Below, in pieces: positions 1-28,383 of a DNA stretch of 32,613 bases. Under the pieces are notes generated by a model. The model saw only the letters and a list, made by a program, of their open reading frames with translations. It was not told where the DNA came from and did not search any database. The translations under genes and the position numbers were made by a program. The stretch's first letter is position 1. The number at the start of each line of letters is the position of its first letter. The stretch is from Promethearchaeota archaeon (GTDB taxonomy: Archaea > Asgardarchaeota > Lokiarchaeia > Sigyniarchaeales > SOKP01), in the NCBI GenBank assembly GCA_048938005.1, contig JBHLMQ010000035.1, positions 1-32,613 of the forward strand, given 5' to 3'.

Positions 1-726
1 GGGTGAAAGACCCGCTTTAAACATTTTACGAAGAAAATCGAACGTTTGCTTAGAATCTGGATATTTCTTAATTACTTTTTCTGTAGCAGGCACATAATCT
101 GGACCGCGATATTCAGCAGGACGATTTCGTTCACAATCCATAATTGTGGAATTTACATATGATGGGCAAAATACAGAGATCTTTATTTTTGAATGTACTT
201 GTTCAAGTTCTCTGGCTAAAGCTTCAGAGAGGCCAACAACACCATGTTTTGTAGCAGAATAAATCCCAGTTTCCCCACCTGACATAAGTCCCGCAAGAGA
301 CGACGTATTTACTATATGACACTCATTATCTTGTTTAAGCATAATTGGGACAAAATTTCGAATGCCATGAATTACACCCCAAAAGTTTACATTAATAATC
401 CATTTCAAATCGGATAGAGAATGTTCCCATATAAAACCAGGCAAAACAACCCCTGCATTATTACATAATAAATGTACTTCACCGAAAGTATCTATTGTTT
501 TTTTCGCTAACGCTTCAACATCTTCCGCTTTTGTAACATCTGTTAATATTGATAACACTGATACTCCTAATGTTTTCAATTCATCTTCAGCTTTAGATAA
601 TGCGTCTGATTCAATATCAGCAAGTACGATCTTCATCCCTTCCTTAGCAGCTATATTAGCAATTCCACGTCCAATACCATTTGCGCCACCAGTAATAACA
701 GCTACTTTATCTTTAAAATCTTTCAT
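1..726 (-). CDS. Short-chain dehydrogenase/reductase (SDR), 3'-partial (runs off the window start)
   Basis: Not in the ORF track. Manual translation from the ATG at 726 gives MKDFKDKVAVITGGANGIGRGIA (TGxxxGIG), then NNAG and the catalytic YSATK (YxxxK). Confidence 0.93.
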   Translation of the reverse strand, partial: MKDFKDKVAVITGGANGIGRGIANIAAKEGMKIVLADIESDALSKAEDELKTLGVSVLSILTDVTKAEDVEALAKKTIDTFGEVHLLCNNAGVVLPGFIWEHSLSDLKWIINVNFWGVIHGIRNFVPIMLKQDNECHIVNTSSLAGLMSGGETGIYSATKHGVVGLSEALARELEQVHSKIKISVFCPSYVNSTIMDCERNRPAEYRGPDYVPATEKVIKKYPDSKQTFDFLRKMFKAGLSP

Positions 727-851
727 ATATATCTCACTCTAATTTCTTTATTATAAAATCAACATTGATTATTTATAGAAGATAATGATGTTATTTATAA
801 TGTTTATGTAAAAACTGTCAAAATTAAACAAGATAATAAGGAAGAAGAAAA

Positions 852-2072
852 TTACTTTAAATAATGCAATGCTGTCAATGCGTACATTTTAGTAGCATTA
901 ATTAAATCTTTAATGTAGACAAATTCATCGGCAGCATGAGCATTTGTATCGTTGCGACCTGTACCAATTAAGATAGTTTCAATCCCTCTTTCTTGAAACC
1001 AATGAGCATCGGTCGAAGGCATAAATAACTTAAATTCCCGTTCTTCATTATAGATTGCTTGAGCAGATTGTTGAACAGCTTTAGCAAAATCAGATTTACC
1101 ATCGATTACAAAGGGTTCCAGTGAAATAGGGATTTGTACTATGATATCCAGATAAGGATCTTCCTTCTTTAATTCCTCTACATAATCTAATATTCGTTTC
1201 TTGATGCTTGCAATATCTTGTTCCGGAATTGTGTTAACGCTACAATGAAGGTAACATTTATCGGGCACAGTAGTAATTTTATTTCCACCATGAATTTCTG
1301 CTAAATTTATGTAGCTAACTTTAGTTGTAAAACCCACTGGTAAAGCGTATTCAGTTTCTCTAGTCATAAATTCTTTATTTAAATCTGATAAGAAGTTCAT
1401 AATTTTCACCATTCTATCTATAGTATTTATTCCAGAATGTTTAGTACGGTAAGGAAGTGGTAGATCTGGAGCTCCCAAGCCATGTGCTTGTTTTCCAAAT
1501 ATAGTAATAGTTATATACATTGTTCCACCAGTATAACCAAAAGGATATTCTGCTGGAGCGTCTCCTAATAAGCAGACATCACCCTTTACTAATCCTTCTC
1601 CCAGCAAATACGCTGCACCTCTAAGTCCACCTAATTCTTCGTCACCTACAGCTGTTAAAATTAATTTTCCCTTGAGTTTAATTCCTACATCAATTAAAGC
1701 TTTAGCCGCAAATATTTCAGCAGTTACACAAGATTTATCATCACACGCACCACGTCCATAAATTTTACCATTAGTTATTTCACCACCAAATGGATCTTTC
1801 GTCCAGTTTTTAAAAGCTTGTACTGTATCATAATGGGCATTGAAAATCAATGTCTTTCCATTTCCCTCTCCTATCTCTCCTATAACATTTTTTCTCTTTA
1901 TCTGTGTTTTTAATCCGATTTTTTTCATTTTACTCTCAGTAAATTTAGCAATTTCTTGATATTTAGAGGGTGGATTTTCTGAGGGGATTTGAATACTTTT
2001 TTGATGAAATTTAATAATTTCATCCTTCATATCGTCTATTTTTTTAAGAATTAATTTCTCTAAATTCTCCAT
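852..2072 (-). CDS. M20 family metallopeptidase/deacylase (ArgE/DapE-like)
   Basis: Motifs FNAHYDTV, GRGACDDK, GDEE and C-terminal AHAADE; 406 aa. Confidence 0.9.
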   Translation of the reverse strand: MENLEKLILKKIDDMKDEIIKFHQKSIQIPSENPPSKYQEIAKFTESKMKKIGLKTQIKRKNVIGEIGEGNGKTLIFNAHYDTVQAFKNWTKDPFGGEITNGKIYGRGACDDKSCVTAEIFAAKALIDVGIKLKGKLILTAVGDEELGGLRGAAYLLGEGLVKGDVCLLGDAPAEYPFGYTGGTMYITITIFGKQAHGLGAPDLPLPYRTKHSGINTIDRMVKIMNFLSDLNKEFMTRETEYALPVGFTTKVSYINLAEIHGGNKITTVPDKCYLHCSVNTIPEQDIASIKKRILDYVEELKKEDPYLDIIVQIPISLEPFVIDGKSDFAKAVQQSAQAIYNEEREFKLFMPSTDAHWFQERGIETILIGTGRNDTNAHAADEFVYIKDLINATKMYALTALHYLK

Positions 2073-2212
2073 TTTTATTCCTATAAAGTTTCCTATAATA
2101 ATTCTTGTATAAAGAAAAATATAAAACTATAAAATTAAAAAACTATCTACCACATATTTAGATTGTTATTTCTAATAAAAAGAATCAATTTGAAAAAAGA
2201 ATAAAGTGATAT

Positions 2213-3223
2213 ATGATGGCAAAAAGAGTTGCAATCAACGGTTTCGGGCGTATAGGGCGCCTATTTTTTCGAGCAGTATACGATAATTTCTGGAATGATA
2301 TTGATATCGTGTCCATCAACGATCTTTTCGAAGCAAAATATTTAGCTTATGCGTTAAAATATGACTCTGTCTTCGGAAGATTTAAAGGAAACGTTGAGGC
2401 GAGAGATAAGTCCTTGATTATTCATGGTAAAGAAATTCCTATTACTGCTGAAAGAGATCCTGCGAATTTACCACATGCTAGTAATAATGTTGATGTAGCT
2501 GTTGAGTCAACTGGACGTTTTGTAGCTAGAGATGGTGCAAGTAAACATCTAACTGCTGGTGCGAAAAGGGTTTTGATCAGTGCTCCAGCAACAGATCCAG
2601 ATATTACAGTTGTATTGGGATGTAATGATGATAAATTAACAGCTGAACACAGGATAATCTCGAATGCATCCTGTACTACAAATTGCCTAGCACCAGTTGT
2701 TAAAGTTTTGAACGAAAATTTTAAGATTAAGTACGGGTTGATGACAACAATTCACTCATATACTAATGATCAAACAACGGCAGATATTGCTAGAGCAGGA
2801 ACTCCTGAAAAAATGATCCGTGGAAGAGCCGCTGCTCAAAATATGATCCCTACATCGACTGGAGCTGCGAAGGCAATTGGCTTAGTTTTTCCAGAACTGA
2901 AAGGAAAACTAGATGGTATTGCTGTAAGAGTACCCACACTTGATGGTAGCGTTGTTGATTTAAAAGCTGTAGTAGAAAATAGGTGCACTGCCGAGGATAT
3001 AAATTCTAAAATGCGAGAAGCTTCTAATAATAGTTTAAGAGGCATCTTAGAATATACGGAAGATCCTATTGTAAGTAGTGATATCATTGGCAATCCCCAT
3101 AGCTCAATATTTAACAGTCTTTGGACTAAGGTTGTTGAAGATCAAGTTTTTGTTTTGAGTTGGTATGATAATGAATGGGGCTTTTCAAATCGAATGGCTG
3201 AGTTAATAATTAAAAGGTTATAA
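2213..3223 (+). CDS. gap: Glyceraldehyde-3-phosphate dehydrogenase, type I (bacterial/eukaryotic class)
   Basis: INGFGRIGR, active-site NASCTTNCLAP, TTIHSYT, RVPT and WYDNEWGFS. Confidence 0.96.
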   Translation: MMAKRVAINGFGRIGRLFFRAVYDNFWNDIDIVSINDLFEAKYLAYALKYDSVFGRFKGNVEARDKSLIIHGKEIPITAERDPANLPHASNNVDVAVESTGRFVARDGASKHLTAGAKRVLISAPATDPDITVVLGCNDDKLTAEHRIISNASCTTNCLAPVVKVLNENFKIKYGLMTTIHSYTNDQTTADIARAGTPEKMIRGRAAAQNMIPTSTGAAKAIGLVFPELKGKLDGIAVRVPTLDGSVVDLKAVVENRCTAEDINSKMREASNNSLRGILEYTEDPIVSSDIIGNPHSSIFNSLWTKVVEDQVFVLSWYDNEWGFSNRMAELIIKRL

Positions 3224-3237
3224 ATATATAATCCATT

Positions 3238-3261
3238 TACTTCTTTTTTTTATTATTTTTA
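3238..3261. terminator. Oligo-T tract between convergent genes; probable archaeal-type terminator of gap
   Basis: T-rich run (ttcttttttttttattattttt) about 15 nt after the gap stop codon. Confidence 0.4.
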
Positions 3262-3816
3262 TTAAATTATAAAATTCAAATAAATCATTGTGAGGATTAA
3301 AGAACAACTAAATAGGATTATAAAAAGATTAGAACTCCAATGTTTAATCCTTTTTCTTATAAACATAAATCTAAATCCCACAGCAACGTGGATTATGATA
3401 CAAATTGATAGAAAGAAATCATAATAGATATGTGAATCAAACGGTATTACTATTCCTATGCTTTCAGCGTACCATTCATAGTAGCCTAAACCAGATAAAA
3501 CAACTAGGGCAGCTAAAATAATTATTACTCTGTTTGTGATTAATTGTATTAATCTTAATATGTAGATAGGGCGTGCTCTTTTATTTTTCAGGCCTCTAAA
3601 TATACGAATCCACCAGAGTTTCAAATATTTTTGTGAAAGAATGCAATGTATAATTAATAATCCCATTAAAATCCATTCAGAACCTAAGTGCAGAAAGGGG
3701 TAAAAATCATAAATTTCAAGAAATTTACGTAAAGCCACTATAATAAGTACTATAAATGAAGAAAAAGCAAGCAACCAAGAGATTTTCCTATGTATTTTTA
3801 ATCCTTGAATTTTCAT
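3262..3816 (-). CDS. Integral membrane protein with two H-x13-H helices (cytochrome b/DUF4405-like)
   Basis: About 5 hydrophobic segments; His pairs H43/H57 and H129/H143; 2-bp gap from the upstream methyltransferase. Confidence 0.6.
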   Translation of the reverse strand: MKIQGLKIHRKISWLLAFSSFIVLIIVALRKFLEIYDFYPFLHLGSEWILMGLLIIHCILSQKYLKLWWIRIFRGLKNKRARPIYILRLIQLITNRVIIILAALVVLSGLGYYEWYAESIGIVIPFDSHIYYDFFLSICIIIHVAVGFRFMFIRKRIKHWSSNLFIILFSCSLILTMIYLNFII

Positions 3817-14692: not shown

Positions 14693-15733
14693 ATGATGTC
14701 CCAAGACCAAATCCTTTGTGTAACTTATTTTGATCAAGTTATTGGCCCTAACACATTATATTCTAGTAAACCGTTGTCAGAAATTTCAGATACACCAGAT
14801 GTAAATAGAATCCTCGAATTTAACGATGAGGAAGGCACATTCATTTTTGCTTACAGAAAATTTCAAACAGTTAATCATATTTTTTATATAGATTCTGAGT
14901 TAGCCCGAGGTGGAAAGGAATTATTGATGATTACTTATATGATCAAAACAGCAATTTTTAAGGATGAAATCGTGGATGTATTTAAATATCTAGACTCAAA
15001 AACACCAGTTTTAGAAGATTTTGCTTTAGAGATAAAGAAATTAGAGGAAATTTCGTCATTATTACATCTAAAGAAAAGCAGCCAATCAGATGAGTATGTA
15101 ATAGATTTAGCCGATGAAGAACTAAAAATCCGTTTCTTGGATATTTTCAATAGATATTTTCAAAAATTATCCCCTAAATACAAATTAGAAACCCCAATAA
15201 GGGATAAACGATTAATAAAAAAAGTTTTTATAATCGGGGCTCCGAGAGTTGGAAAGACAACATTTTTAAAGAACATAGAATTAATTCAATTCCTAAATGT
15301 CAAAAAAAATGACTTACCAACAAGGATCTATGAAGTAGTTATTGAAAATCTTGAGATTTTAAAATATGATGAAGGTATAAGCGAATTTGAGTGTAAAGAA
15401 TTTGAAACTTTAGAAAATTGTGTGAATATCTCTCAAGGTTTTATTCTTCTCTTTAATTTATCAGATAAAAACTCACTTATTAGAACCAAAGAAATTTTTC
15501 AAATTGTTGATAATACGCGCTTAGAATTGGAAACTGAATTAGCTCCAATATTATTAATTGGAAACAAATTTTATGATAAAGAAGACATAGAGCCAGAATT
15601 TGTCTATGCAACTTTCGAAGTAGAAGAATTGAAGGAGCTCGGTATTAAAATTAAATATTTTCCTATAAATATTTTGAAGGAAGATGAAAAAGTAATGGAA
15701 GCATTACGATGGTTAATAAAAAACATAATTTAA
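14693..15733 (+). CDS. Longin/uDENN (folliculin-like) domain fused to a divergent Ras-like small GTPase domain
   Basis: N-terminal YFDQVIGPNTLY and HIFYIDSELARG; P-loop GAPRVGKT (aa 182-189), GFILLFNLSD and PILLIGNKFYD. Confidence 0.75.
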   Translation: MMSQDQILCVTYFDQVIGPNTLYSSKPLSEISDTPDVNRILEFNDEEGTFIFAYRKFQTVNHIFYIDSELARGGKELLMITYMIKTAIFKDEIVDVFKYLDSKTPVLEDFALEIKKLEEISSLLHLKKSSQSDEYVIDLADEELKIRFLDIFNRYFQKLSPKYKLETPIRDKRLIKKVFIIGAPRVGKTTFLKNIELIQFLNVKKNDLPTRIYEVVIENLEILKYDEGISEFECKEFETLENCVNISQGFILLFNLSDKNSLIRTKEIFQIVDNTRLELETELAPILLIGNKFYDKEDIEPEFVYATFEVEELKELGIKIKYFPINILKEDEKVMEALRWLIKNII

Positions 15734-16259: not shown

Positions 16260-16622
16260 CTAATTAATAGAAATTGGATATGTTCCATATTTTTTTAATG
16301 TCTCATTCATTGCTAAATAATTATGCAATTTAACAGAGGGATTAATACTATGTCCAGAACTTAGAATAAATCCTCCTCCAGGAGCGAGTTTTTTAATGAG
16401 TTTTTTGGTATAGGTTTCAATAAAATTTGAACTTTTATCCGCAAGATCCTGAGGAGAAACATTACCAATAAAACATATTTTATCAGCAAATTTTTCATAT
16501 AATTCAAAAATATTATATTTTAGGTTCGTAGTTGTAGGCTCAATAGGATGAATTCCGTCTACACCTAAATTAATAATACTTTCAAATAATTGAAAAATAT
16601 CTCCACAACTATGTAATAGCAC
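16260..16622 (-). pseudogene. C-terminal fragment of a uroporphyrinogen decarboxylase / MtaA-CmuA methyltransferase family protein
   Basis: LLHSCG, GVDGIHPIEP, CFIGNV and GGGFILSSGHSI; only 120 aa, with an in-frame TGA 10 codons upstream of the GTG and no room for the N-terminal part. Confidence 0.7.
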
Positions 16623-19050: not shown

Positions 19051-21249
19051 TTAAAGATTGAGTTTTTGTCTCCATATCTTCATTGTCAGCTTTAATTCTT
19101 CCCTTTCAGGGCGGCTTAATATGTCAGGATTGCTTTTAAGCTCAATACTTTCATTATGAATATTTTTTAACACGCTGTTATAACCCTCAATTTTAACATA
19201 TTCATTTTGAAATTTTTCAAGTGCTAATGAAATTTCCGTCCCAGTCATTTTTTCGAGATTATTGACGATCTCATTAAATTGATTTGATAAAATTGTCGAT
19301 TTTGGAGCTTCTATACGTTCTTTTTCTTCTACTTCTTCTTTAGGTGGAATTTTTATAATCTCCTCTTCTACAAAAGGTTCTTCTTTCAAGGGTTCTTCTT
19401 TCAAAGGTTCTTCTAGTACAGGTTTTTTTATTGTACGCATAACTTCCTTCCTAGCACCCACCCATGCATCTTCAAGAATTGGGACAAATATTTTGATATG
19501 TTCCTCAATTATACTTCCAATTCCTGCAATTTCAGTAACATATTCTCCCCGAAATTCAGTTTTAGAAAGGACGCATAATATTACCTCTTCATAGTCTTTG
19601 TTAATCCCCCAAAGATTTTGAAGAGCTCTATTTCTATAATCTACGTTATCCATATTATCCATTTCTCTCATAACTGCTTCATGTTCTGGTATGGTTGGAT
19701 CAATATAAGTGGCAACTCTGAAATTTATACGGGAAGGTCGGGCTTTAATTGCATCAATATCAATATCAGAGAGATTAGGAGCAACAATTAACACTCTCAT
19801 TTTAGCTTTTGCGATTTCATCATTAATATGAGCTTTAGCAGCTTCTGGAGAGCGAATAAACCAGATATCTTTCATTGTAATACCTCGTCTTCCTTTAGCT
19901 TGATCCCAAAATTCTCTAGTAGTAATTTCACTAACTTCTAATTTATTTAAAATATCTGATAATGTATTATCTAATGTGTCAACTATCCCCTTTCCAAAGA
20001 TATCTTTTATATTGCCAAATGATTCAAAAATCCCTCCAGAAAGCCCATCGATTTTCTCTTCTGCTAGCTTTACAGCTTTATTAAAATTATCAGAAAGTTC
20101 TCCAAATATTCTTTCTTTATCTGCTCCTGATTTAGAAGTAATTGATTCAATATTCTTAACGGCATCTTGAAGTGAATCTTTTAATTTTGAAATAATTTCT
20201 GTATTTAATCCTTCAGTTGCTTTTTTTAATTCATCTGCAAAAACAGTCTGACTAACACTCAATTGCACATTTAAATTGTCAGTAATGTCTTTTAGACGTG
20301 AAGCGATAACTTTATCAATGACATCACCTACAGCTTGCTGAATAACTCCTAACCGTAATTTCTGTAAATTTTCAGTAATAGTACTTTTAATATCACCGAA
20401 TTGATCCCTTAGATCATCAACTTGGTTTTTAATTATCTGGGATGTCTTTACATTAAGGTTTTGAAATTGCTTTGCTAAAGATCCAAGTTGATCATCAGAT
20501 AGAGTTTTTGTAATATCTCCTAATTGTGAGATATCGTCTGTAATCGATCTGATTTGATCAATTGCAGAAATAGTTTCATCAAATTCTTTCTTCTGAGCGT
20601 GGATTTGAGAAAGCATTTTTTCTTTCAAGTCAGTCATTACTTCACTAGAATCTTTTAGTTTTTCCATATCCTGGGCCTCTGTTTCAAGTTTTGCAAAAGA
20701 TACATCTAGCTGTTTCGGTATCCGTGACTTAATATCTGAAATATAAGAATAAAAGTTCTTTAATTGTGCAATTAAAGCAGCATAAGGCGGTAAAGCTTGA
20801 TAGTGAGGTGTTGCACCAATAATCTCTTTAAATAAACCTTTTTCAACAAATTTATCAGCAATTTTTTTGCATACTTCTTTTGGCCTGTTAATTAAAATTG
20901 CCATTTCCCCGACAGATACTGCTTCTCGACCTGTGGTTCGAAAATAGAGTTCAATTTCTTCATCAGATAAATCAATTTCACTTAATACTTGCCTTGTTAA
21001 CTCTTTTGAATAAGAAACATCTTTTTCTTTTTCTATTACATCCTTTATTTCAAAATTTTCAACTTCTAAATACTGGTTAATGAAGACAATTAATTTGTGA
21101 GCTGGTTCACCATGAATATCTTCTTTTCTAATAGGAAATTTTTTAATTTCTTTATATTCATCAACTGAAATCGGAAATTTAATTTCTTTTAGGCAAATTT
21201 TACATGTAATTGGAACTTCGACAACATCTTTATCTTTAAACAGATACAT
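19051..21249 (-). CDS. Multidomain TrmB-like regulator: putative Zn domain + TrmB wHTH + long helical region + TrmB/PLD-like effector domain
   Basis: C16xxC19 and H46/H51; LSDEEIELY..VSVGEMA..FVEKGLF..YQALPP; about 300 aa amphipathic helical stretch; DIWFIRS..EIAKAKMRVLIVAP. Confidence 0.6.
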   Translation of the reverse strand: MYLFKDKDVVEVPITCKICLKEIKFPISVDEYKEIKKFPIRKEDIHGEPAHKLIVFINQYLEVENFEIKDVIEKEKDVSYSKELTRQVLSEIDLSDEEIELYFRTTGREAVSVGEMAILINRPKEVCKKIADKFVEKGLFKEIIGATPHYQALPPYAALIAQLKNFYSYISDIKSRIPKQLDVSFAKLETEAQDMEKLKDSSEVMTDLKEKMLSQIHAQKKEFDETISAIDQIRSITDDISQLGDITKTLSDDQLGSLAKQFQNLNVKTSQIIKNQVDDLRDQFGDIKSTITENLQKLRLGVIQQAVGDVIDKVIASRLKDITDNLNVQLSVSQTVFADELKKATEGLNTEIISKLKDSLQDAVKNIESITSKSGADKERIFGELSDNFNKAVKLAEEKIDGLSGGIFESFGNIKDIFGKGIVDTLDNTLSDILNKLEVSEITTREFWDQAKGRRGITMKDIWFIRSPEAAKAHINDEIAKAKMRVLIVAPNLSDIDIDAIKARPSRINFRVATYIDPTIPEHEAVMREMDNMDNVDYRNRALQNLWGINKDYEEVILCVLSKTEFRGEYVTEIAGIGSIIEEHIKIFVPILEDAWVGARKEVMRTIKKPVLEEPLKEEPLKEEPFVEEEIIKIPPKEEVEEKERIEAPKSTILSNQFNEIVNNLEKMTGTEISLALEKFQNEYVKIEGYNSVLKNIHNESIELKSNPDILSRPEREELKLTMKIWRQKLNL
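19376..19414. repeat. 15-bp tandem repeat (about 2.6 copies) encoding EEPLK-EEPLK-EEP
   Basis: ggttcttctttcaag / ggttcttctttcaaa / ggttcttct. Confidence 0.85.
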
Positions 21250-21282: not shown

Positions 21283-22536
21283 TCAAAATGTTACTTTTTC
21301 TGGATAGGTTATTTCTAATAAACTAAGAGCTTTCTTAGCAATTTCGTAAGTAATCCCCCCATCAGTTTCTTGATTTTTATATGCTGCTCTAATTTTAGGA
21401 AGTAAATATTCTGGAAATACAATCAATGGTTTAATATCGGTTAATAGACATATCCATTTTCTATTGTTTTCATCAGTAACTTCAGTGATAATATTTAAAC
21501 TCTTTAAATCATCTAATAAAATCTCAGTAACAGCAAATTCTGAAAATATTTTAGGAATTTTATCCATGGGATAATGATTATGTCTCATCAATATAAAAAA
21601 ATCATAAACATCAGGATTCAAAAGAATAGATGCTAATTTTTTTGTTTCTTCAATAGATTGGGTATAAGGATCATAATTTGCAAAGAAATCAATAACTTTT
21701 TGTTTAAATATTGGTAATAATTCATTCTTTGTTTCTTTAAAGTGGTTTAGCAAATTCTCATTAGGGATGCGAGTAAGAATAATATCCTTAATTAGAAATA
21801 AATACTCTCCTTGATGTGATAATTCCCCTGTTTTTTTATCTTTCTCTCCTTTTATCCAATCTCGGCGAATAATGTTCAATTCTAAAAATGGTTGAAGTAA
21901 TATATCTATATTTGCAGTAGAAGTCATTTTTTCTAAAATACTTTTCATTTCCTTTTTTGAAATAGGATACTCCCGTAAAATTTCCAAAATTTTTAATCGT
22001 TCATCACTGTTATAGATTAATGCGACTTTCTGAATTTTATCCAGGTTTGTTAATCGGTCTACTTGAAAAATTGTGAATTTAATTTCATTTTTCAATCTTA
22101 TATTTATATTTTCAATTAAGGAAAGCTGTTTTGAATTTCTAGCCCTTGTCAATTTATCAAAGATACTGTCTAATCTATTACCCATATCTTTGATTAGATC
22201 CTCAAATATAGCAATTTCATCATCCAATTCAAATATCGAAATTGCTAAATATTGTGTTCCGTCAGCAACTTGTTTAAAATAAGAAATTACTTGATAAGGA
22301 GTCTCTTTTAATCTTCCCTCATAAAAATTACTATAACTGTATTTGACCCCAAAAAGCCCTGTAGTATGTTGATAAAAAATCGCAAATATATCATTTTCAA
22401 CAATCAATTCCGAGAAATTAGTTTCATCAAATTTTTCTTCTCGGAATATTAATTGAATTGGGTCAAACTCCGGCTCAATTTCGCCTGTCTCTTTCTGATT
22501 AATTTTAAATTGAAATGTTAATATACCTTGAATCAC
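21283..22536 (-). CDS. Putative longin-like domain + two winged-helix repeats (NPRL2/NPRL3-like architecture)
   Basis: N-terminal strand/helix pattern fits a longin fold; two similar segments (ILEILREYP..LLQPFLELNII..YLFLIKDI and FFILMRHNH..LLDDLKSLNII..WICLLTDI); GTG start. Confidence 0.5.
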   Translation of the reverse strand: MIQGILTFQFKINQKETGEIEPEFDPIQLIFREEKFDETNFSELIVENDIFAIFYQHTTGLFGVKYSYSNFYEGRLKETPYQVISYFKQVADGTQYLAISIFELDDEIAIFEDLIKDMGNRLDSIFDKLTRARNSKQLSLIENINIRLKNEIKFTIFQVDRLTNLDKIQKVALIYNSDERLKILEILREYPISKKEMKSILEKMTSTANIDILLQPFLELNIIRRDWIKGEKDKKTGELSHQGEYLFLIKDIILTRIPNENLLNHFKETKNELLPIFKQKVIDFFANYDPYTQSIEETKKLASILLNPDVYDFFILMRHNHYPMDKIPKIFSEFAVTEILLDDLKSLNIITEVTDENNRKWICLLTDIKPLIVFPEYLLPKIRAAYKNQETDGGITYEIAKKALSLLEITYPEKVTF

Positions 22537-22871: not shown

Positions 22872-24593
22872 ATGAAAACGAAAAATAGTCTCAAAATAAT
22901 TATTTCCTTGTTGTTTGTTATACTTATTATTTCTTCATTATGTATGTTTATAGGAAAAAATAGTTCAAATAAAATTTATATTAATACAAACTCTTTTGAA
23001 GAACTTGAAACTTCTGGAACATCATACCATAACAATGAACCGTGGATTGTTAATCCTACATTTATACAACCAGTAGATCCATGGTATCCGACCATTGAGG
23101 AAGATGTTTCTGATGCTAGCACATCAACAAGTCCAAATCAAGCAAATTTTGTGGTTATTGGAAATTCAGGACAATATAGTTTTGCTGAAACACCCGATGA
23201 GACATGGAACGTTAGTTCTGATCCTAATTGGGGTCCGTTGCCTAATTTAGCATTATATGATAATAATTATAGTACTGATAAGTATGGGGCTTTTCTTACT
23301 TATAGGTGGGATGAAAATGGTATGGGAGGTCAGCTTGGACAACTTGTTAGTGTACAATGGAAAAAAAACATTCCCAACGTTCCAGTTAACATGTCAGATT
23401 ATATTATTACCTCTGCATCGCTTAAAGTGATTTTTAATGCAACAGTTCAAGCACTTGATCATACGAATGGTGGTATAGATTGCATTGGTGATTCAGTCGG
23501 TCAAATTGATAATGGTGATTTTGTAAGATTTTATACTACACTTTCTGATCCAAATAATATTAGCATAATCCCCCAAGCATATAATAAATCTAATAATAAT
23601 CCTCCTTATTTAGGTCTAGATGCTCGAGCTGATTTGGATGGAAAAGATCATTTTGCAGATACCATATTATCTCCTTCAGAAAGTTTCTTAATTGATGATT
23701 TGGAGAGTTTATTTAAATTGAATCATACCAGTCTTACAATTCTTATAGGAATTGATATTCACTGTGAAGATAATAATGCTGTTTATGATGATGATTATTG
23801 GGAAAAATTAAGAATTAAATACGTCAACCTAACATTCACCTATGAGAAAAGAATTGATCAGTTTACAGCTATCTCGTGGAATCAAGATTTGAATGCAGTT
23901 AATCGTACAAGAATTAACTCTACTATACAAATTATTGATGCTAATCTTAATTTTAAATTTAAAATCGATCAAAATTGGACCGAAGCCTCCCAAAATTCCC
24001 ATTTCCGAATTTTTATTGATGATAGAAAATCATGGACTAAATTTTTAATAGATTATGTTTATTCGCCAGAGTTTCAAGACGCAGAGATAGGCGGTATTGA
24101 CATTGTTTCGAAAATTTTACCATATGAAGAATTTACTTTATCAATTCAAGTGTTTTTAGCTGAAGATTTTGGATTAGCTCATAATATTACTATTTCAATA
24201 ACAGATGTCTATTTAAACATTTCTTGGATAGAATCATGGACCGAGCCCTCGATTCCTGAACCATGGATATTTGCCTTATTATTAATTTTAGTAAGTATAG
24301 GTGCAATTTCTTTAGGTGGTTATTTAATTGCATATCAAAGAGTTTTAAAATATCCTAGACCTGTAAGAAAAGTGAGAAAATTCAGGAGAACTCTTAATAA
24401 AAGTTCTGCTCCGGATGTAGCAATATTGCCAAGAGAAATAGCATTTAAGAAATCTTATAACAGAGAATTAGTTGAAACGTCTAAAGGACTGAAACTTAAA
24501 CCTAGTGAGTCAAAAGTAGCTAAAGTTATAGAAAAAGGTGAATTTGCAAAGCCACCAGAAACAACTTTTGAAACAAAAATAGATTCTGACTAA
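22872..24593 (+). CDS. Membrane-anchored surface (glyco)protein, one repeat module; probably prematurely terminated
   Basis: N-terminal TM/signal; beta-rich region with many N-x-S/T sequons; TM followed by KYPRPVRKVRKFRRTL; paralog of the next gene. Confidence 0.8.
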   Translation: MKTKNSLKIIISLLFVILIISSLCMFIGKNSSNKIYINTNSFEELETSGTSYHNNEPWIVNPTFIQPVDPWYPTIEEDVSDASTSTSPNQANFVVIGNSGQYSFAETPDETWNVSSDPNWGPLPNLALYDNNYSTDKYGAFLTYRWDENGMGGQLGQLVSVQWKKNIPNVPVNMSDYIITSASLKVIFNATVQALDHTNGGIDCIGDSVGQIDNGDFVRFYTTLSDPNNISIIPQAYNKSNNNPPYLGLDARADLDGKDHFADTILSPSESFLIDDLESLFKLNHTSLTILIGIDIHCEDNNAVYDDDYWEKLRIKYVNLTFTYEKRIDQFTAISWNQDLNAVNRTRINSTIQIIDANLNFKFKIDQNWTEASQNSHFRIFIDDRKSWTKFLIDYVYSPEFQDAEIGGIDIVSKILPYEEFTLSIQVFLAEDFGLAHNITISITDVYLNISWIESWTEPSIPEPWIFALLLILVSIGAISLGGYLIAYQRVLKYPRPVRKVRKFRRTLNKSSAPDVAILPREIAFKKSYNRELVETSKGLKLKPSESKVAKVIEKGEFAKPPETTFETKIDSD

Positions 24594-24816: not shown

Positions 24817-27800
24817 ATGAAATTAGAAAAACAAAAAGAAAGATTTTATTTCTTCATAATTATTATCTTATTTATCCTTTCATTTAATATATTTACATTA
24901 AACATAGTTTTTGGACAAAACTCTGCTAATATTGCCAAGAATTCTTTAAACACATTGGAAATTGAAAAACAAGGAAAGATACACACTTCAAGTGAAATTC
25001 CACATCAAAACATAGAATGGTTGAAAAACTCAGATTTTAATACAACTGAATATTGGGTTTCAAATATTACCGGAGATAGTAGAGATATCGATGCAAATAT
25101 TAACAATGATCAAGCAAATTATTATATTTTAGGTGATCAAGGAACATACTCAAATGTTTCTGGTACACCCACATCTAGTTACTGGAAGAATGTTACGAAT
25201 ACGAATTTTCCATCATTACCGTCTTTTCAAGAAATAGATGATTATGGTTGTCATGTTTATCATTCTTGGCAAGATCCAGAAGATCCATTCCAAATGGTAA
25301 GCATTCATTGGGATAGAAATATTACTTTACCCGATTTTTTTGACATTACTGACTATAATATTACTTCAGCTTCATTAACAGCAATAGTTAACGCCACAGT
25401 TACGCCTTATGGTACTACTCCGCTTTATCGAAGGGGGGTGGATGTCGAAGGTGATACTATTGATGGATCAGATCCAGACTTTCAGAGAGAATATGATTAT
25501 GTTAGGTTTTATGTATTAATTTCAGACTTACAAAAAAATTATACATACGAACTTGCATATAATCAAACTAAGAATCTAGGACAAGATAGTGGTCCCACAA
25601 TTTCAAATATGATAGATACAGAAATGTTTACTTATTCTGAGGAAAAAATTATATCACATTTAACAACAGTATTAGAAAAAGATCCTGATCATAGATCCTT
25701 TACGTTAACTTTAGGAATGAGAATTTATTGTGCAGATAATGGGATGGGAGATAACGACACCTGGAATTCCTTACGTATTAAATCCTGTAATTTCTCTTTT
25801 GCATATGAAAAAATTATTAACAAATTTTCTTATGCAGTGTGGGAACAAGAGAGCAACGAAATTAGCGGAAACAATGTACAAATTACTGATGCTATTCTTA
25901 ATTTCGACTATAAAATAAATCAAACTTGGTCAATGGCCCTATCTCCAAACTCCGAGATTCGAATATTAATTAATGGCAAACAACATACAGAAACATTAAG
26001 ACTCAGTAATGCCCCCCTAACCTTTCAGGAAGCAAAGGTAGGCGGATTTGATGTTTCTACTTTGATTTCTGCTTATATTAACATTTCTATTTCGATTCAA
26101 GTTTTTCTTGGTGATGAGTTTGGTTTGGATCAAGAAGTTAAAATCTCGATTGATAACGTATCTCTAAAAATTTCTTATTTTGAAATTTTTAGTGACGTTC
26201 TTCCAGAACCTCTTATATTTCGCATATTACTTATTGTCGCTCTTGTAGCATCCCTTATTCTAGGAAGTTATTTAGTTCTATATCAAAAAATATTGAAATA
26301 TCCAAAACCAGTTCGAAAAGTTCGAAAATATAAAAGAACTCTGAGAAGAAAAAAGGCCCCTAGCACCCCAATTTCCAGTCGTGAGAGAAGTTTTACTGCC
26401 TCATTTAATAAAGAATTGAGTACAACTGCGAGTTTAAGAAAAGGAAAACCAACAGAACAGAAAATAGAACCTACTAAAAAAGTAAGTACTGTACCTAAAA
26501 ACCCTTCAAGTAATAATGTTAATAACACCTCTGAAAAACTTGAAAGCAATAATAACACAAACCTATTTAAACACCCTACTAAAAGAAAAGATCAAAAAAG
26601 ATTTGAAAAACTAAAGAAGAGAAAACATATCTCTAAGAGTCTAAGCTTTTCTAAACATCAAAAGTTTTTTATTTTAATTATAATTCTACTCATTTTATTG
26701 CTAAATCCCTTTATAATCCGAATTGTTAATACTCAAAACTATAGTGAATTTAAGAATAATGAATTTAACTTCAAAGAAATACAAAATCCTGAAAGCTTAT
26801 CTCTTTCAGCTGTGAATTCTGTTACAAGGGAATGGCTACAAAATTCCGAATTTGATACATCAGAGCATTGGAATTTGCTAAAAGAAGAAACTGGGGATAA
26901 AGATGATATTGATGGTAATATAAGTCAAGGGCAAGCAAATTATAAAGTTTTAGGAGAAATAAGAACTTATTCGAATATATCTGGTCCACCTGATGATACA
27001 TGGACAAGAGTTGTCAATCCCAACTTTCCCGATTTACCTGATACAGCTCAAATAATAGACGGTTATGGATGTTATGTTTCACATGAATGGGCAGAAAGAG
27101 CCGATCAATCTCCTTCTGTACATTGGGATAAGAATGTTACTATGCCCGTTTCCATGTCTGATTATATAATAAAATCTGTTTCCCTTAATACAGTTGTAAA
27201 TGCTACAGTACAAGCAACCGGCGGAGGAAGTGGAGGAATTGAAGTTCCAGGAGACACTGTTACTGTTAATGCTACTCATGATTATGTAAGTTTTTATGTG
27301 TTATTATCTGATTTATCAAAAGAAAAGGTTTATAAAGTTGCATATAATCAAACTAAGAATTTAGGACAAGATAGTAATCCCACAATTACCAATATGCTAG
27401 ACACTGCTCTAACAAATGTACCTCAAAAAAGGTTAATTGAATACCTTACTTCAGTTTTAAGAACGGATAATCTCCACTTTACAATAACTTTAGGAATTAG
27501 AATATGGTGTGAAGATAACTTTAATTGGGATGAAGATGATTGGGTAGATTTATGGATTAAATCTTGTAATTTATCATTTACTTATGAAAGAAAGATAGAC
27601 CGATTCACTGCCATATCGTGGAATCAAGTTGGTGATGATATTTCTGGAGATAATATTCAGATAACTGAAGCAAATTTAAGATTTAAATATAAAATCGATC
27701 AATTATGGCCTGTATCAGCTCCATATTCTGAAATTAGAGTTTTAATTAATGATAATCCGCTCACGGGAACTGAACTTAAATTAAGTTCAGCTACACTTAC

Positions 27801-28383
27801 TTTTCAGGAGGCAAAAGAAGGAGGATACGATGTTACAACTTTAATTTCAAAAGATATCAATATATCACTCTCGATTCAAATTTTTATATTAGACGAATTA
27901 TTCTCTTTAGATAGGAATATAACTGTTTCAATAGATGATGTATTTTTAGAAATATCTTATGATGTTTTTTATAGAGATATTTTGGAAGAACCATGGTTTT
28001 TTACCACACTATTGGTAATTGCTAGTGTAATTACTGCAGGTGTTGGGGGATATCTTGTTGCATATCAAAAATATTTAAAGTATCCTAGACCTGTTAGAAA
28101 AGTAAGAAAATTCAAGCGAACTTTACGGAAGACAAAAGAACCTAATGTAATTATAATGCCTAGAGAAATTGCATTCAGACGAATGTATAGTCGAGAGATA
28201 AGTGGTAGTAGTATTAAATTGGCTAAAACAAAACCCTTAGAATCAACTCTACCCGAAAAATTAGGAGCTGAACCAGTAGAACCTACGATGGAACCAGAAG
28301 AACTTATAGAAAAATCAATAGAAAAAAAGACGGAACTAGATAAATTAGTTAAAGATTCAGTAGAAGAAGCCTCTAAAAAATGA
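24817..28383 (+). CDS. Large membrane-anchored surface protein made of two fused modules
   Basis: Two TM-ectodomain-TM-KYP(K/R)PVRKVRK units about 595 aa apart; shared AYNQTKNLGQDS, IKSCN and TFQEAK.GG.DV. Confidence 0.85.
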   Translation: MKLEKQKERFYFFIIIILFILSFNIFTLNIVFGQNSANIAKNSLNTLEIEKQGKIHTSSEIPHQNIEWLKNSDFNTTEYWVSNITGDSRDIDANINNDQANYYILGDQGTYSNVSGTPTSSYWKNVTNTNFPSLPSFQEIDDYGCHVYHSWQDPEDPFQMVSIHWDRNITLPDFFDITDYNITSASLTAIVNATVTPYGTTPLYRRGVDVEGDTIDGSDPDFQREYDYVRFYVLISDLQKNYTYELAYNQTKNLGQDSGPTISNMIDTEMFTYSEEKIISHLTTVLEKDPDHRSFTLTLGMRIYCADNGMGDNDTWNSLRIKSCNFSFAYEKIINKFSYAVWEQESNEISGNNVQITDAILNFDYKINQTWSMALSPNSEIRILINGKQHTETLRLSNAPLTFQEAKVGGFDVSTLISAYINISISIQVFLGDEFGLDQEVKISIDNVSLKISYFEIFSDVLPEPLIFRILLIVALVASLILGSYLVLYQKILKYPKPVRKVRKYKRTLRRKKAPSTPISSRERSFTASFNKELSTTASLRKGKPTEQKIEPTKKVSTVPKNPSSNNVNNTSEKLESNNNTNLFKHPTKRKDQKRFEKLKKRKHISKSLSFSKHQKFFILIIILLILLLNPFIIRIVNTQNYSEFKNNEFNFKEIQNPESLSLSAVNSVTREWLQNSEFDTSEHWNLLKEETGDKDDIDGNISQGQANYKVLGEIRTYSNISGPPDDTWTRVVNPNFPDLPDTAQIIDGYGCYVSHEWAERADQSPSVHWDKNVTMPVSMSDYIIKSVSLNTVVNATVQATGGGSGGIEVPGDTVTVNATHDYVSFYVLLSDLSKEKVYKVAYNQTKNLGQDSNPTITNMLDTALTNVPQKRLIEYLTSVLRTDNLHFTITLGIRIWCEDNFNWDEDDWVDLWIKSCNLSFTYERKIDRFTAISWNQVGDDISGDNIQITEANLRFKYKIDQLWPVSAPYSEIRVLINDNPLTGTELKLSSATLTFQEAKEGGYDVTTLISKDINISLSIQIFILDELFSLDRNITVSIDDVFLEISYDVFYRDILEEPWFFTTLLVIASVITAGVGGYLVAYQKYLKYPRPVRKVRKFKRTLRKTKEPNVIIMPREIAFRRMYSREISGSSIKLAKTKPLESTLPEKLGAEPVEPTMEPEELIEKSIEKKTELDKLVKDSVEEASKK

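Follow-up and report, generated by a model that had tools for sequence, protein, structure and literature searches.

Does an archaeal protein that carries a folliculin-type longin and a Ras-like domain on one chain regulate itself, or does it act on another GTPase? The question is raised by a gene at positions 14693..15733 of a 32,613-nucleotide stretch of DNA from a Promethearchaeota archaeon, here called the window (contig C61 of a 3.72-Mb draft genome of 101 contigs, 95% complete and 7% contaminated). The first-pass annotation of the window had described the N-terminus of the encoded protein as a folliculin/SMCR8-like longin that keeps the arginine finger of a GTPase-activating protein (GAP) and is fused to its own small GTPase – a one-chain GAP-GTPase or, alternatively, a GAP acting in trans. 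The matter bears on where the nutrient-signalling GAPs of the lysosome (FLCN-FNIP, GATOR1 and C9orf72-SMCR8) came from, and small soluble longin-G-domain proteins would be tractable test objects for a minimal longin GAP mechanism. The results below show that the N-terminal half keeps both catalytic-pocket signatures of the GAP longins, while the C-terminal half, an Arf-family G domain by origin, has lost motifs on which a GTP switch depends; of the two possibilities, action in trans appears to fit these sequences better than a one-chain GAP-GTPase.

A conserved two-domain gene

The possibility that the open reading frame (ORF) is spurious was rejected because its product has 119 full-length homologs at 59-94% identity. 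A word-indexed search returned 289 homologs at E≤1e-3, mostly of about 345 amino acids (aa), the best being 94% identical; an exhaustive search of cluster representatives returned 122 at E≤1e-3, of which 28 reach E≤1e-30. Those that are named carry metagenome-assembled genome labels of Promethearchaeota, Loki-, Thor-, Hod-, Hermod- or Odinarchaeota. The set of close homologs to which counts out of 119 refer consists of the members of P0001-P0121 that measure 330-365 aa, two shorter ones being excluded. A sample of 201 genomes from the phylum, 40 of them from the window's own family (f1), was also searched with the single sequence as query: 29 of those 40 encode a full-length ortholog at E≤2e-55, and no full-length match at this threshold was found in the other families of the sample. 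Conservation across greater distances was read from an alignment (A1) of 62 rows, of which 31 are near (28-100% identical, the window protein included) and 31 are far (16-23% identical). The ORF encodes a soluble two-domain protein. In the first-pass annotation the feature ended at 15200, which takes in the N-terminal domain and the linker; the gene itself continues to 15733.

The N-terminal half is a GAP-type longin

An AlphaFold2 model of aa 1-165, built on a 73-row alignment, reached a predicted local distance difference test score (pLDDT) of 87.2 and a predicted template modelling score (pTM) of 0.86. Its elements (b1 6-14, b2 18-24, a1 37-43, b3 48-54, b4 57-67 and b5 75-85, then helices to aa 159) describe a predicted longin, that is, b-b-a-b-b-b plus C-terminal helices, and its top Foldseek matches are the longins of GATOR1, FLCN, FNIP2 and SEAC. 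The closest solved structure, PDB 8yqg, bears the title of a dimeric Loki longin, as far as the entry was available; a two-copy complex prediction of aa 1-165, run without controls, reached scores of 0.19 and 0.01, where the mark is 0.42, and speaks neither for nor against dimerisation. A look-up of the same residues in the ESM Atlas gave top scores of 0.84-0.86, under the level that would count as more than a lead, with Pfam NPR2 on 19% of the members of one cluster.

Two motifs group this longin with the GAP-type longins. (The papers cited here were available in part, and statements about them apply to the portions available.) In FLCN, SMCR8 and NPRL2, according to a survey of Asgard longins (PMC12290439, Traffic 2025), a GP motif and an arginine finger occupy positions that correspond to the start of strand b2 and to the b4-b5 loop; the pair is specific to the catalytic subunits of eukaryotic longin GAPs and is missing from FNIP2, NPRL3 and non-GAP longins. 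A preprint (10.1101/2020.04.16.045708) likewise places SMCR8 R147 in the bL4-bL5 loop in a figure legend, its running text naming loop b6-b7 for FLCN. In the window protein G18 and P19 open the strand at 18-24, where PMC12290439 puts the GP motif, and R72 sits between the strands at 57-67 and 75-85. G18, P19, R72 and G73 are each kept in 119/119 close homologs. The same is seen at greater distance: GP is found in 31/31 near and 30/31 far rows of A1 (61/62 in total), and RG in 29/31 near and 31/31 far rows (60/62 in total). The three blocks of sequence quoted in the first-pass annotation lie at aa 7-25 (14711-14767), aa 46-52 (14828-14848) and aa 61-73 (14873-14911), R72 is encoded at 14906-14908 as given there, and the likeness of the N-terminus to the folliculin/SMCR8 longins is borne out by the model, by the Foldseek matches and by a profile comparison (E 3.3e-12) set out below. 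The N-terminal half is thus a folliculin/SMCR8/NPRL2-type GAP longin that keeps both catalytic-pocket signatures, GP and Arg.

If these residues served structure or binding alone, the longin could, like most longins, be an adaptor or an element resembling a guanine-nucleotide exchange factor, and the protein as a whole a non-catalytic platform: a scaffold of two 'dead' signalling domains. We consider this improbable, as the GP and Arg pair is specific to GAP-active longins in the account of PMC12290439, and neither motif varies in any of the 119 orthologs.

R72 aligns with the arginine finger of folliculin

Direct searches gave no residue-level link to folliculin. Neither Pfam Folliculin (PF11704) nor NPR2 (PF06218) matched the window protein at E≤10, and NPR2 matched nothing in its genome. 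The N-terminal profile of the protein's own family (A2, 19 rows) found no folliculin among PDB sequences with hmmsearch, its sole match being a designed helical bundle at E 0.68; a Pfam scan of the 19 members gave two weak Folliculin matches and two weak Afi1 matches (E 0.031). Within the genome, Pfam Folliculin matched one paralog alone, encoded on contig C9, at 21.1 bits (under the cut-off of 23.3), and the longin of that paralog had no phmmer match in PDB. An intermediate profile was therefore used. Across the phylum sample Pfam Folliculin at E≤1e-3 matches proteins in 50/201 genomes, 32 of them with a match over the curated cut-off, as compared to 0/14 control genomes. Thirteen Asgard longins that match Pfam Folliculin – 12 from loci of the phylum plus the contig C9 paralog (locus L023) – were assembled into profile A4, which has no row in common with A2 and in which GP and RG are invariant.

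A2 aligns to A4 with a probability of 97.6% in hhalign (E 3.3e-12, 108 columns), with the two GP motifs in register and R72 opposite the invariant Arg. In turn, the two best matches of A4 in PDB are human folliculin (E 0.0027 and 0.0029), the next (E≥0.015) being coiled coils on the helical tail. Counted from the start of the alignment at residue 146, the invariant Arg of A4 falls on residue 164 of the folliculin chain. The N-terminal GP block of folliculin also aligns to that of A4, but at -2.6 bits, which is without significance alone. A match of A4 to folliculin is to be expected, since A4 was selected with a model derived from folliculin; the independent step is the match of A2 to A4. From the two alignments (A2 to A4, and A4 to PDB folliculin) it follows that R72 probably corresponds to FLCN R164, the equivalence that the first-pass annotation had proposed, and the likeness of the N-terminal domain to folliculin exceeds chance. 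Longins of the A2 type are widespread, being present in 84/201 genomes of the phylum sample at E≤1e-6.

The fused domain derives from Arf and has lost GTPase motifs

The domain that follows the longin was called Ras-like at first pass, and this stands: Pfam Arf matches aa 177-345 marginally (E 6.2e-5, 23.0 bits vs a cut-off of 22.3), and the best Foldseek matches of aa 176-346 are Sar1, Arl1, Arf1 and the Asgard protein GerdArfR1, with template modelling scores of about 0.6 normalised by target. Arf-family proteins carry a C-terminal WL signature; W340, in the last helix of the window protein, is at least 90% conserved in A1, in near and far relatives. They also feature an N-terminal amphipathic membrane-binding helix. 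No such helix directly precedes the G-like domain here, where a 165-residue longin and a linker stand instead; in the ArfR preprint the helix is used as a criterion.

The nucleotide-binding motifs are unevenly preserved. The P-loop is retained in the window protein (GAPRVGKT) and fits the canonical GxxxxGK[ST] in 20/31 near rows; in the close homologs G182 and G187 are invariant (119/119) and K188 is found in 114, and the position that follows (189) is Thr in 69, Lys in 42 and Ser in 5. In G3, D226 is kept in 100/119, yet the Gly of DxxG is found in 1/31 near rows and DxxGQ in 0/31, as compared to 22/31 far rows with DxxGQ. In G4, N291 (119/119) and K292 (112/119) are kept, and position 294, where the guanine-specifying Asp would stand, is occupied by His (41), Ser (21), Tyr (19), Asn (11) or Phe (8); NKxD is found in 1/31 near vs 29/31 far rows. 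G5 (S[AS]x) is found in 0/31 near vs 27/31 far rows. The far rows are mostly canonical, many with the Arf-type P-loop GLDxAGKT, and six far-row proteins that were scanned reach E 2e-22 to 8e-38 with Pfam Arf and score much less well with Gtr1_RagA. Together these data show that the C-terminal half is by descent an Arf-family G domain, of which the fold and P-loop are kept, and DxxGQ, the Asp of NKxD and G5 are lost. By its motifs it appears to be an Arf-derived, pseudoGTPase-like module, and some sources name close homologs 'GTPase' or 'ADP-ribosylation factor-like', annotations against which the decay of the G domain in the near group warns.

A domain that has lost its motifs might be a decaying remnant. 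This was considered and rejected: mean column conservation is 0.73 in the G-like domain vs 0.79 in the longin, and a conserved Cys pair (see below) has arisen at the former switch II. Because both halves are about equally conserved, the G-like half is taken to be functional, and purifying selection acts on both.

What does the arginine finger act on?

If the protein were a self-contained GAP-GTPase, its P-loop would still bind GTP and R72, from the same chain or from a dimer partner, would complete the active site, so that the missing Gln would be dispensable. Some GTPases (Rap is one) do operate without the catalytic Gln. The residues kept in the P-loop, D226, N291 and K292 are what this reading would predict, and the far-clade relatives, which pair the same longin with intact Arf motifs, make regulation in cis a plausible ancestral state. 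However, DxxGQ, NKxD and G5 have been lost in the orthologous group and kept in distant relatives, which makes such a switch unlikely here; moreover, the Ser/Thr position of the P-loop is Lys in 42/119 orthologs, and the full-length model (pTM 0.54, vs 0.86 for the longin alone) does not place the two domains against each other with confidence. With DxxGQ, the Asp of NKxD and G5 gone, the fused domain is not a canonical GTP switch for the Arg finger to act on, and the description of the protein as a longin fused to its own small GTPase cannot be upheld across the orthologous group.

The best explanation, to which we give a probability of about 0.5, is that the protein is a trans-acting longin GAP that carries a pseudoGTPase-like module. 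According to this hypothesis the window protein would be a longin-type GTPase-activating subunit; R72 would act in trans on another Arf-like or Rag-like small GTPase of the genome; and the pseudoGTPase-like domain would be a docking or regulatory module rather than the substrate. Possible clients are at hand: the genome holds about 70 G-domain loci, Arf-like and Rag-like among them. The A1 profile has 77 matches in it, the majority of which cover just the G domain; the paralog P0243 described below is one of the 77. Since in relatives the same longin is followed by an Arf-type G domain that is intact, comparison of the sequences suggests that the ancestor may have been a tethered pair of GAP and client.

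A cysteine pair in place of switch II

The stretch that replaces switch II holds two cysteines, C234 and C243, which are present in 117/119 and 119/119 close homologs. Both are found in 24/31 near and in 0/31 far rows of A1, and in some orthologs a third Cys adds a CxxC arrangement. In addition, redox genes lie within about 6 kb of the longin-G-like gene at 7-8 of 10 loci from other genera; those shared encode a ferredoxin-thioredoxin-reductase-like (FeThRed_B-like) protein, two glutaredoxin-like proteins, an FMN reductase and CCG-domain proteins, and mostly lie on the other strand. Such a combination would be expected of a redox-gated regulator in which the two cysteines are linked reversibly as a disulfide, or bind a metal, and the G-like domain reports the thiol redox state rather than the nucleotide state. 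Against this, the redox neighbours are on the other strand or separated, with no shared operon, and the redox-gene clusters hold no member from the four same-genus loci, whose neighbours match the window's own. Because the loci that share redox genes are kin, their synteny is weak evidence, and we regard redox gating as very unlikely.

Paralogs and relatives

Several further longins with GP and ARG are encoded in the same genome (Table 1). The one on contig C9 (P0243) aligns in register with the window longin at GP and ARG, and like the window protein it carries a G domain; but that domain is of the RagA type and intact (P-loop, DIGGQ and HKFD; Pfam Gtr1_RagA E 4.7e-26), with about 90 more residues behind it. 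Its longin scores 19.6-21.1 bits against Pfam Folliculin, and frames of 470-500 aa in sister genera exceed the cut-off. Judged by its motifs and profile matches, P0243 thus joins a longin resembling that of folliculin to a Rag-like GTPase in a single chain. Two larger relatives continue behind a longin-Arf unit, P0166 (1119 aa) with PAS, GAF and histidine-kinase ATPase domains and P0181 (1772 aa) with PAS and GAF.

Two further loci were seen. The longin copy on contig C17 is interrupted by two stops, one right behind the GP block and the other right ahead of ARG, and is a pseudogene or an assembly error. On contig C47 a frame of 1128 aa (70-3453, forward strand), similar in length to P0166, begins with a longin that has neither GP nor RG, continues with an Arf-like G domain (canonical P-loop, DIPGK and NKID), and carries RG in a second longin-like stretch behind that domain; its first longin, lacking the Arg finger, resembles the non-catalytic partners FNIP2 and NPRL3.

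Relation to known systems

A close eukaryotic counterpart is human FLCN, catalytic subunit of the FLCN-FNIP2 GAP for RagC/D (PDB 6ULG, 6NZD and 8DHB). The two proteins differ in several respects. In the folliculin chain the GP block (residues 4-19) and the Arg block (from 146) are more than 100 residues apart, as compared to about 50 in the window protein, which Pfam Folliculin does not reach and for which no FNIP-like partner was identified. Behind its longin, the window protein has neither the DENN domain of FLCN and SMCR8 nor the C-terminal domain of NPRL2, aa 176-346 forming an Arf-like fold. Such a domain is not universal in the FLCN/SMCR8/NPRL2 family, since yeast Lst7 consists of the longin only (preprint 10.1101/2020.04.16.045708). 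SMCR8-C9orf72 (CSW) provides a second comparison: it is a longin-based Arf/Rab GAP, acting on Arf-family GTPases according to PMC8213707, with its Arg finger, R147, in the b4-b5 loop, and the longin described here is likewise tied to an Arf-family domain.

Among archaea, both components of the window protein have precedents. Longins of the FLCN/SMCR8 type with GP and Arg finger are reported from Asgard archaea in PMC12290439, which proposes common ancestry with the eukaryotic GAP longins and possible GAP activity, and raises ArfR or Rag proteins as a question of longin partners. These longins belong to the same phylum and, like the window protein, have both motifs at matching structural places; the part of that paper available is silent on longins fused with G domains, and members of the window family may be among the sequences of its Data S1. 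Fusions of longins to Arf-like GTPases were reported in Lokiarchaeum in 2016 (PMC4917890, which attributes the observation to its reference 23); PMC10933270 describes GTPases of MK-D1 that are joined to a longin alone or flanked by a longin and a roadblock domain; and a preprint by Liu et al. (2020) reports both longin-GTPase fusions and NPRL2/FLCN-like longins. The architecture in these accounts is that of the window protein, an N-terminal longin with a C-terminal Arf/Rag-like G domain; the Arg finger, the GP motif and the loss of G motifs go unmentioned in the portions available.

The longin-Arf architecture and the observation of GP and Arg-finger motifs are therefore each already known in Asgard archaea. 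The idea that such a protein represents a prokaryotic antecedent of the FLCN/SMCR8/GATOR GAPs, raised at first pass, had been published before in general terms (Liu et al. 2020; PMC12290439). As to whether a fusion that retains the Arg finger had been described – a question the first-pass annotation left standing – the two components had been reported before, and their coincidence was not found in print. Specifically, with subscription journals and supplements mostly beyond reach, we found no statement that the Arg-finger longins are those fused to Arf-type or Rag-type G domains, nor one of a conserved group with a decayed G domain. The paper behind PDB 8yqg, 9m28, 8zla and 8yl2 was not found, and the literature may already cover the Rag-like GTPases and longins of Loki archaea.

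The same type of longin is thus found on one chain with an Arf-type domain here and with a Rag-type domain in paralog P0243, and such fusions would offer a genome-encoded answer to the question of archaeal GTPase targets posed by the 2025 survey (PMC12290439, as available). A broader evolutionary reading, which we put forward tentatively and hold to be rather doubtful, is that Asgard Arg-finger GAP longins were tethered to both of the G-domain families that their eukaryotic descendants regulate, and that GAP-client pairings predate eukaryotes. The window family would be tied to the Arf-type domain (compare SMCR8-C9orf72 on Arf), and P0243 with those sister-genus counterparts that pass Pfam Folliculin to the Rag-type domain (compare FLCN on RagC/D). 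The window gene would then stand further along: its tethered client would have turned into a pseudoGTPase, which in view of the conserved cysteines may sense thiols, and the GAP pocket would have been kept for action in trans.

Gene neighbourhood and other features

Synteny around the longin-G-like gene is confined to the genus. Its neighbours – upstream an S33-type hydrolase that carries a fused membrane domain, downstream a membrane protein of 116 aa – recur at 4/4 same-genus loci that were fetched and at 0/10 loci from other genera. No small GTPase, roadblock or longin gene was found as a conserved neighbour in these 14 loci.

Table 1. Positions of the features discussed, in window coordinates or, for the paralogs, as contig:positions.
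Feature	Position	Strand	Remarks
Whole gene	14693..15733	+	346 codons plus stop; two domains joined via a short linker (ORF list, translation)
Longin domain, aa 1-165	14693..15187	+	AlphaFold2 model
G18-P19 (GP motif), start of strand b2	14744..14749	+	119/119 close homologs
A71-R72-G73-G74, b4-b5 loop	14903..14914	+	R72 (14906-14908) is the candidate arginine finger
Linker, aa 164-175	15182..15217	+	aa 164-172 are the sole stretch of the full-length model with pLDDT <50
Arf-family-derived G-like domain, aa 176-346	15218..15730	+	Pfam Arf, Foldseek; fold kept, G3/G4/G5 degenerate
P-loop GAPRVGKTT, aa 182-190	15236..15262	+	Retained in the window protein
G3/switch II site DEGIS, aa 226-230	15368..15382	+	Lacks the DxxG Gly and the catalytic Gln
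Cys pair C234 and C243, stretch replacing switch II	15392..15421	+	Conserved in close homologs
G4 site NKFY, aa 291-294	15563..15574	+	Without the guanine-specifying Asp of NKxD
W340, last helix	15710..15712	+	At least 90% conserved in A1, near and far relatives
GP/ARG longin paralog P0243 (locus L023) with G domain	C9:40802-42277	-	492-aa frame
GP/ARG longin copy	C17:66156-66656	+	TGA and TAA stops; broken frame
GP/ARG longin paralog	C23:13990-14961		324-aa frame; decayed P-loop
GP/ARG longin paralog	C23:39846-40652		269 aa
GP/ARG longin paralog	C90:64917-66119		401 aa

Elsewhere in the window, an ORF of 120 aa on the reverse strand (16260-16622) matches Pfam URO-D (uroporphyrinogen decarboxylase) over no more than its C-terminal third, positions 241-346 of 346, and looks like a truncated gene or a fragment; a counterpart of the same length is found at same-genus loci. 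Four larger ORFs, at 19051-21249 (-), 21283-22536 (-), 22872-24593 (+) and 24817-28383 (+), encode products of 732, 417, 573 and 1188 aa that have no Pfam match at E≤1e-4.

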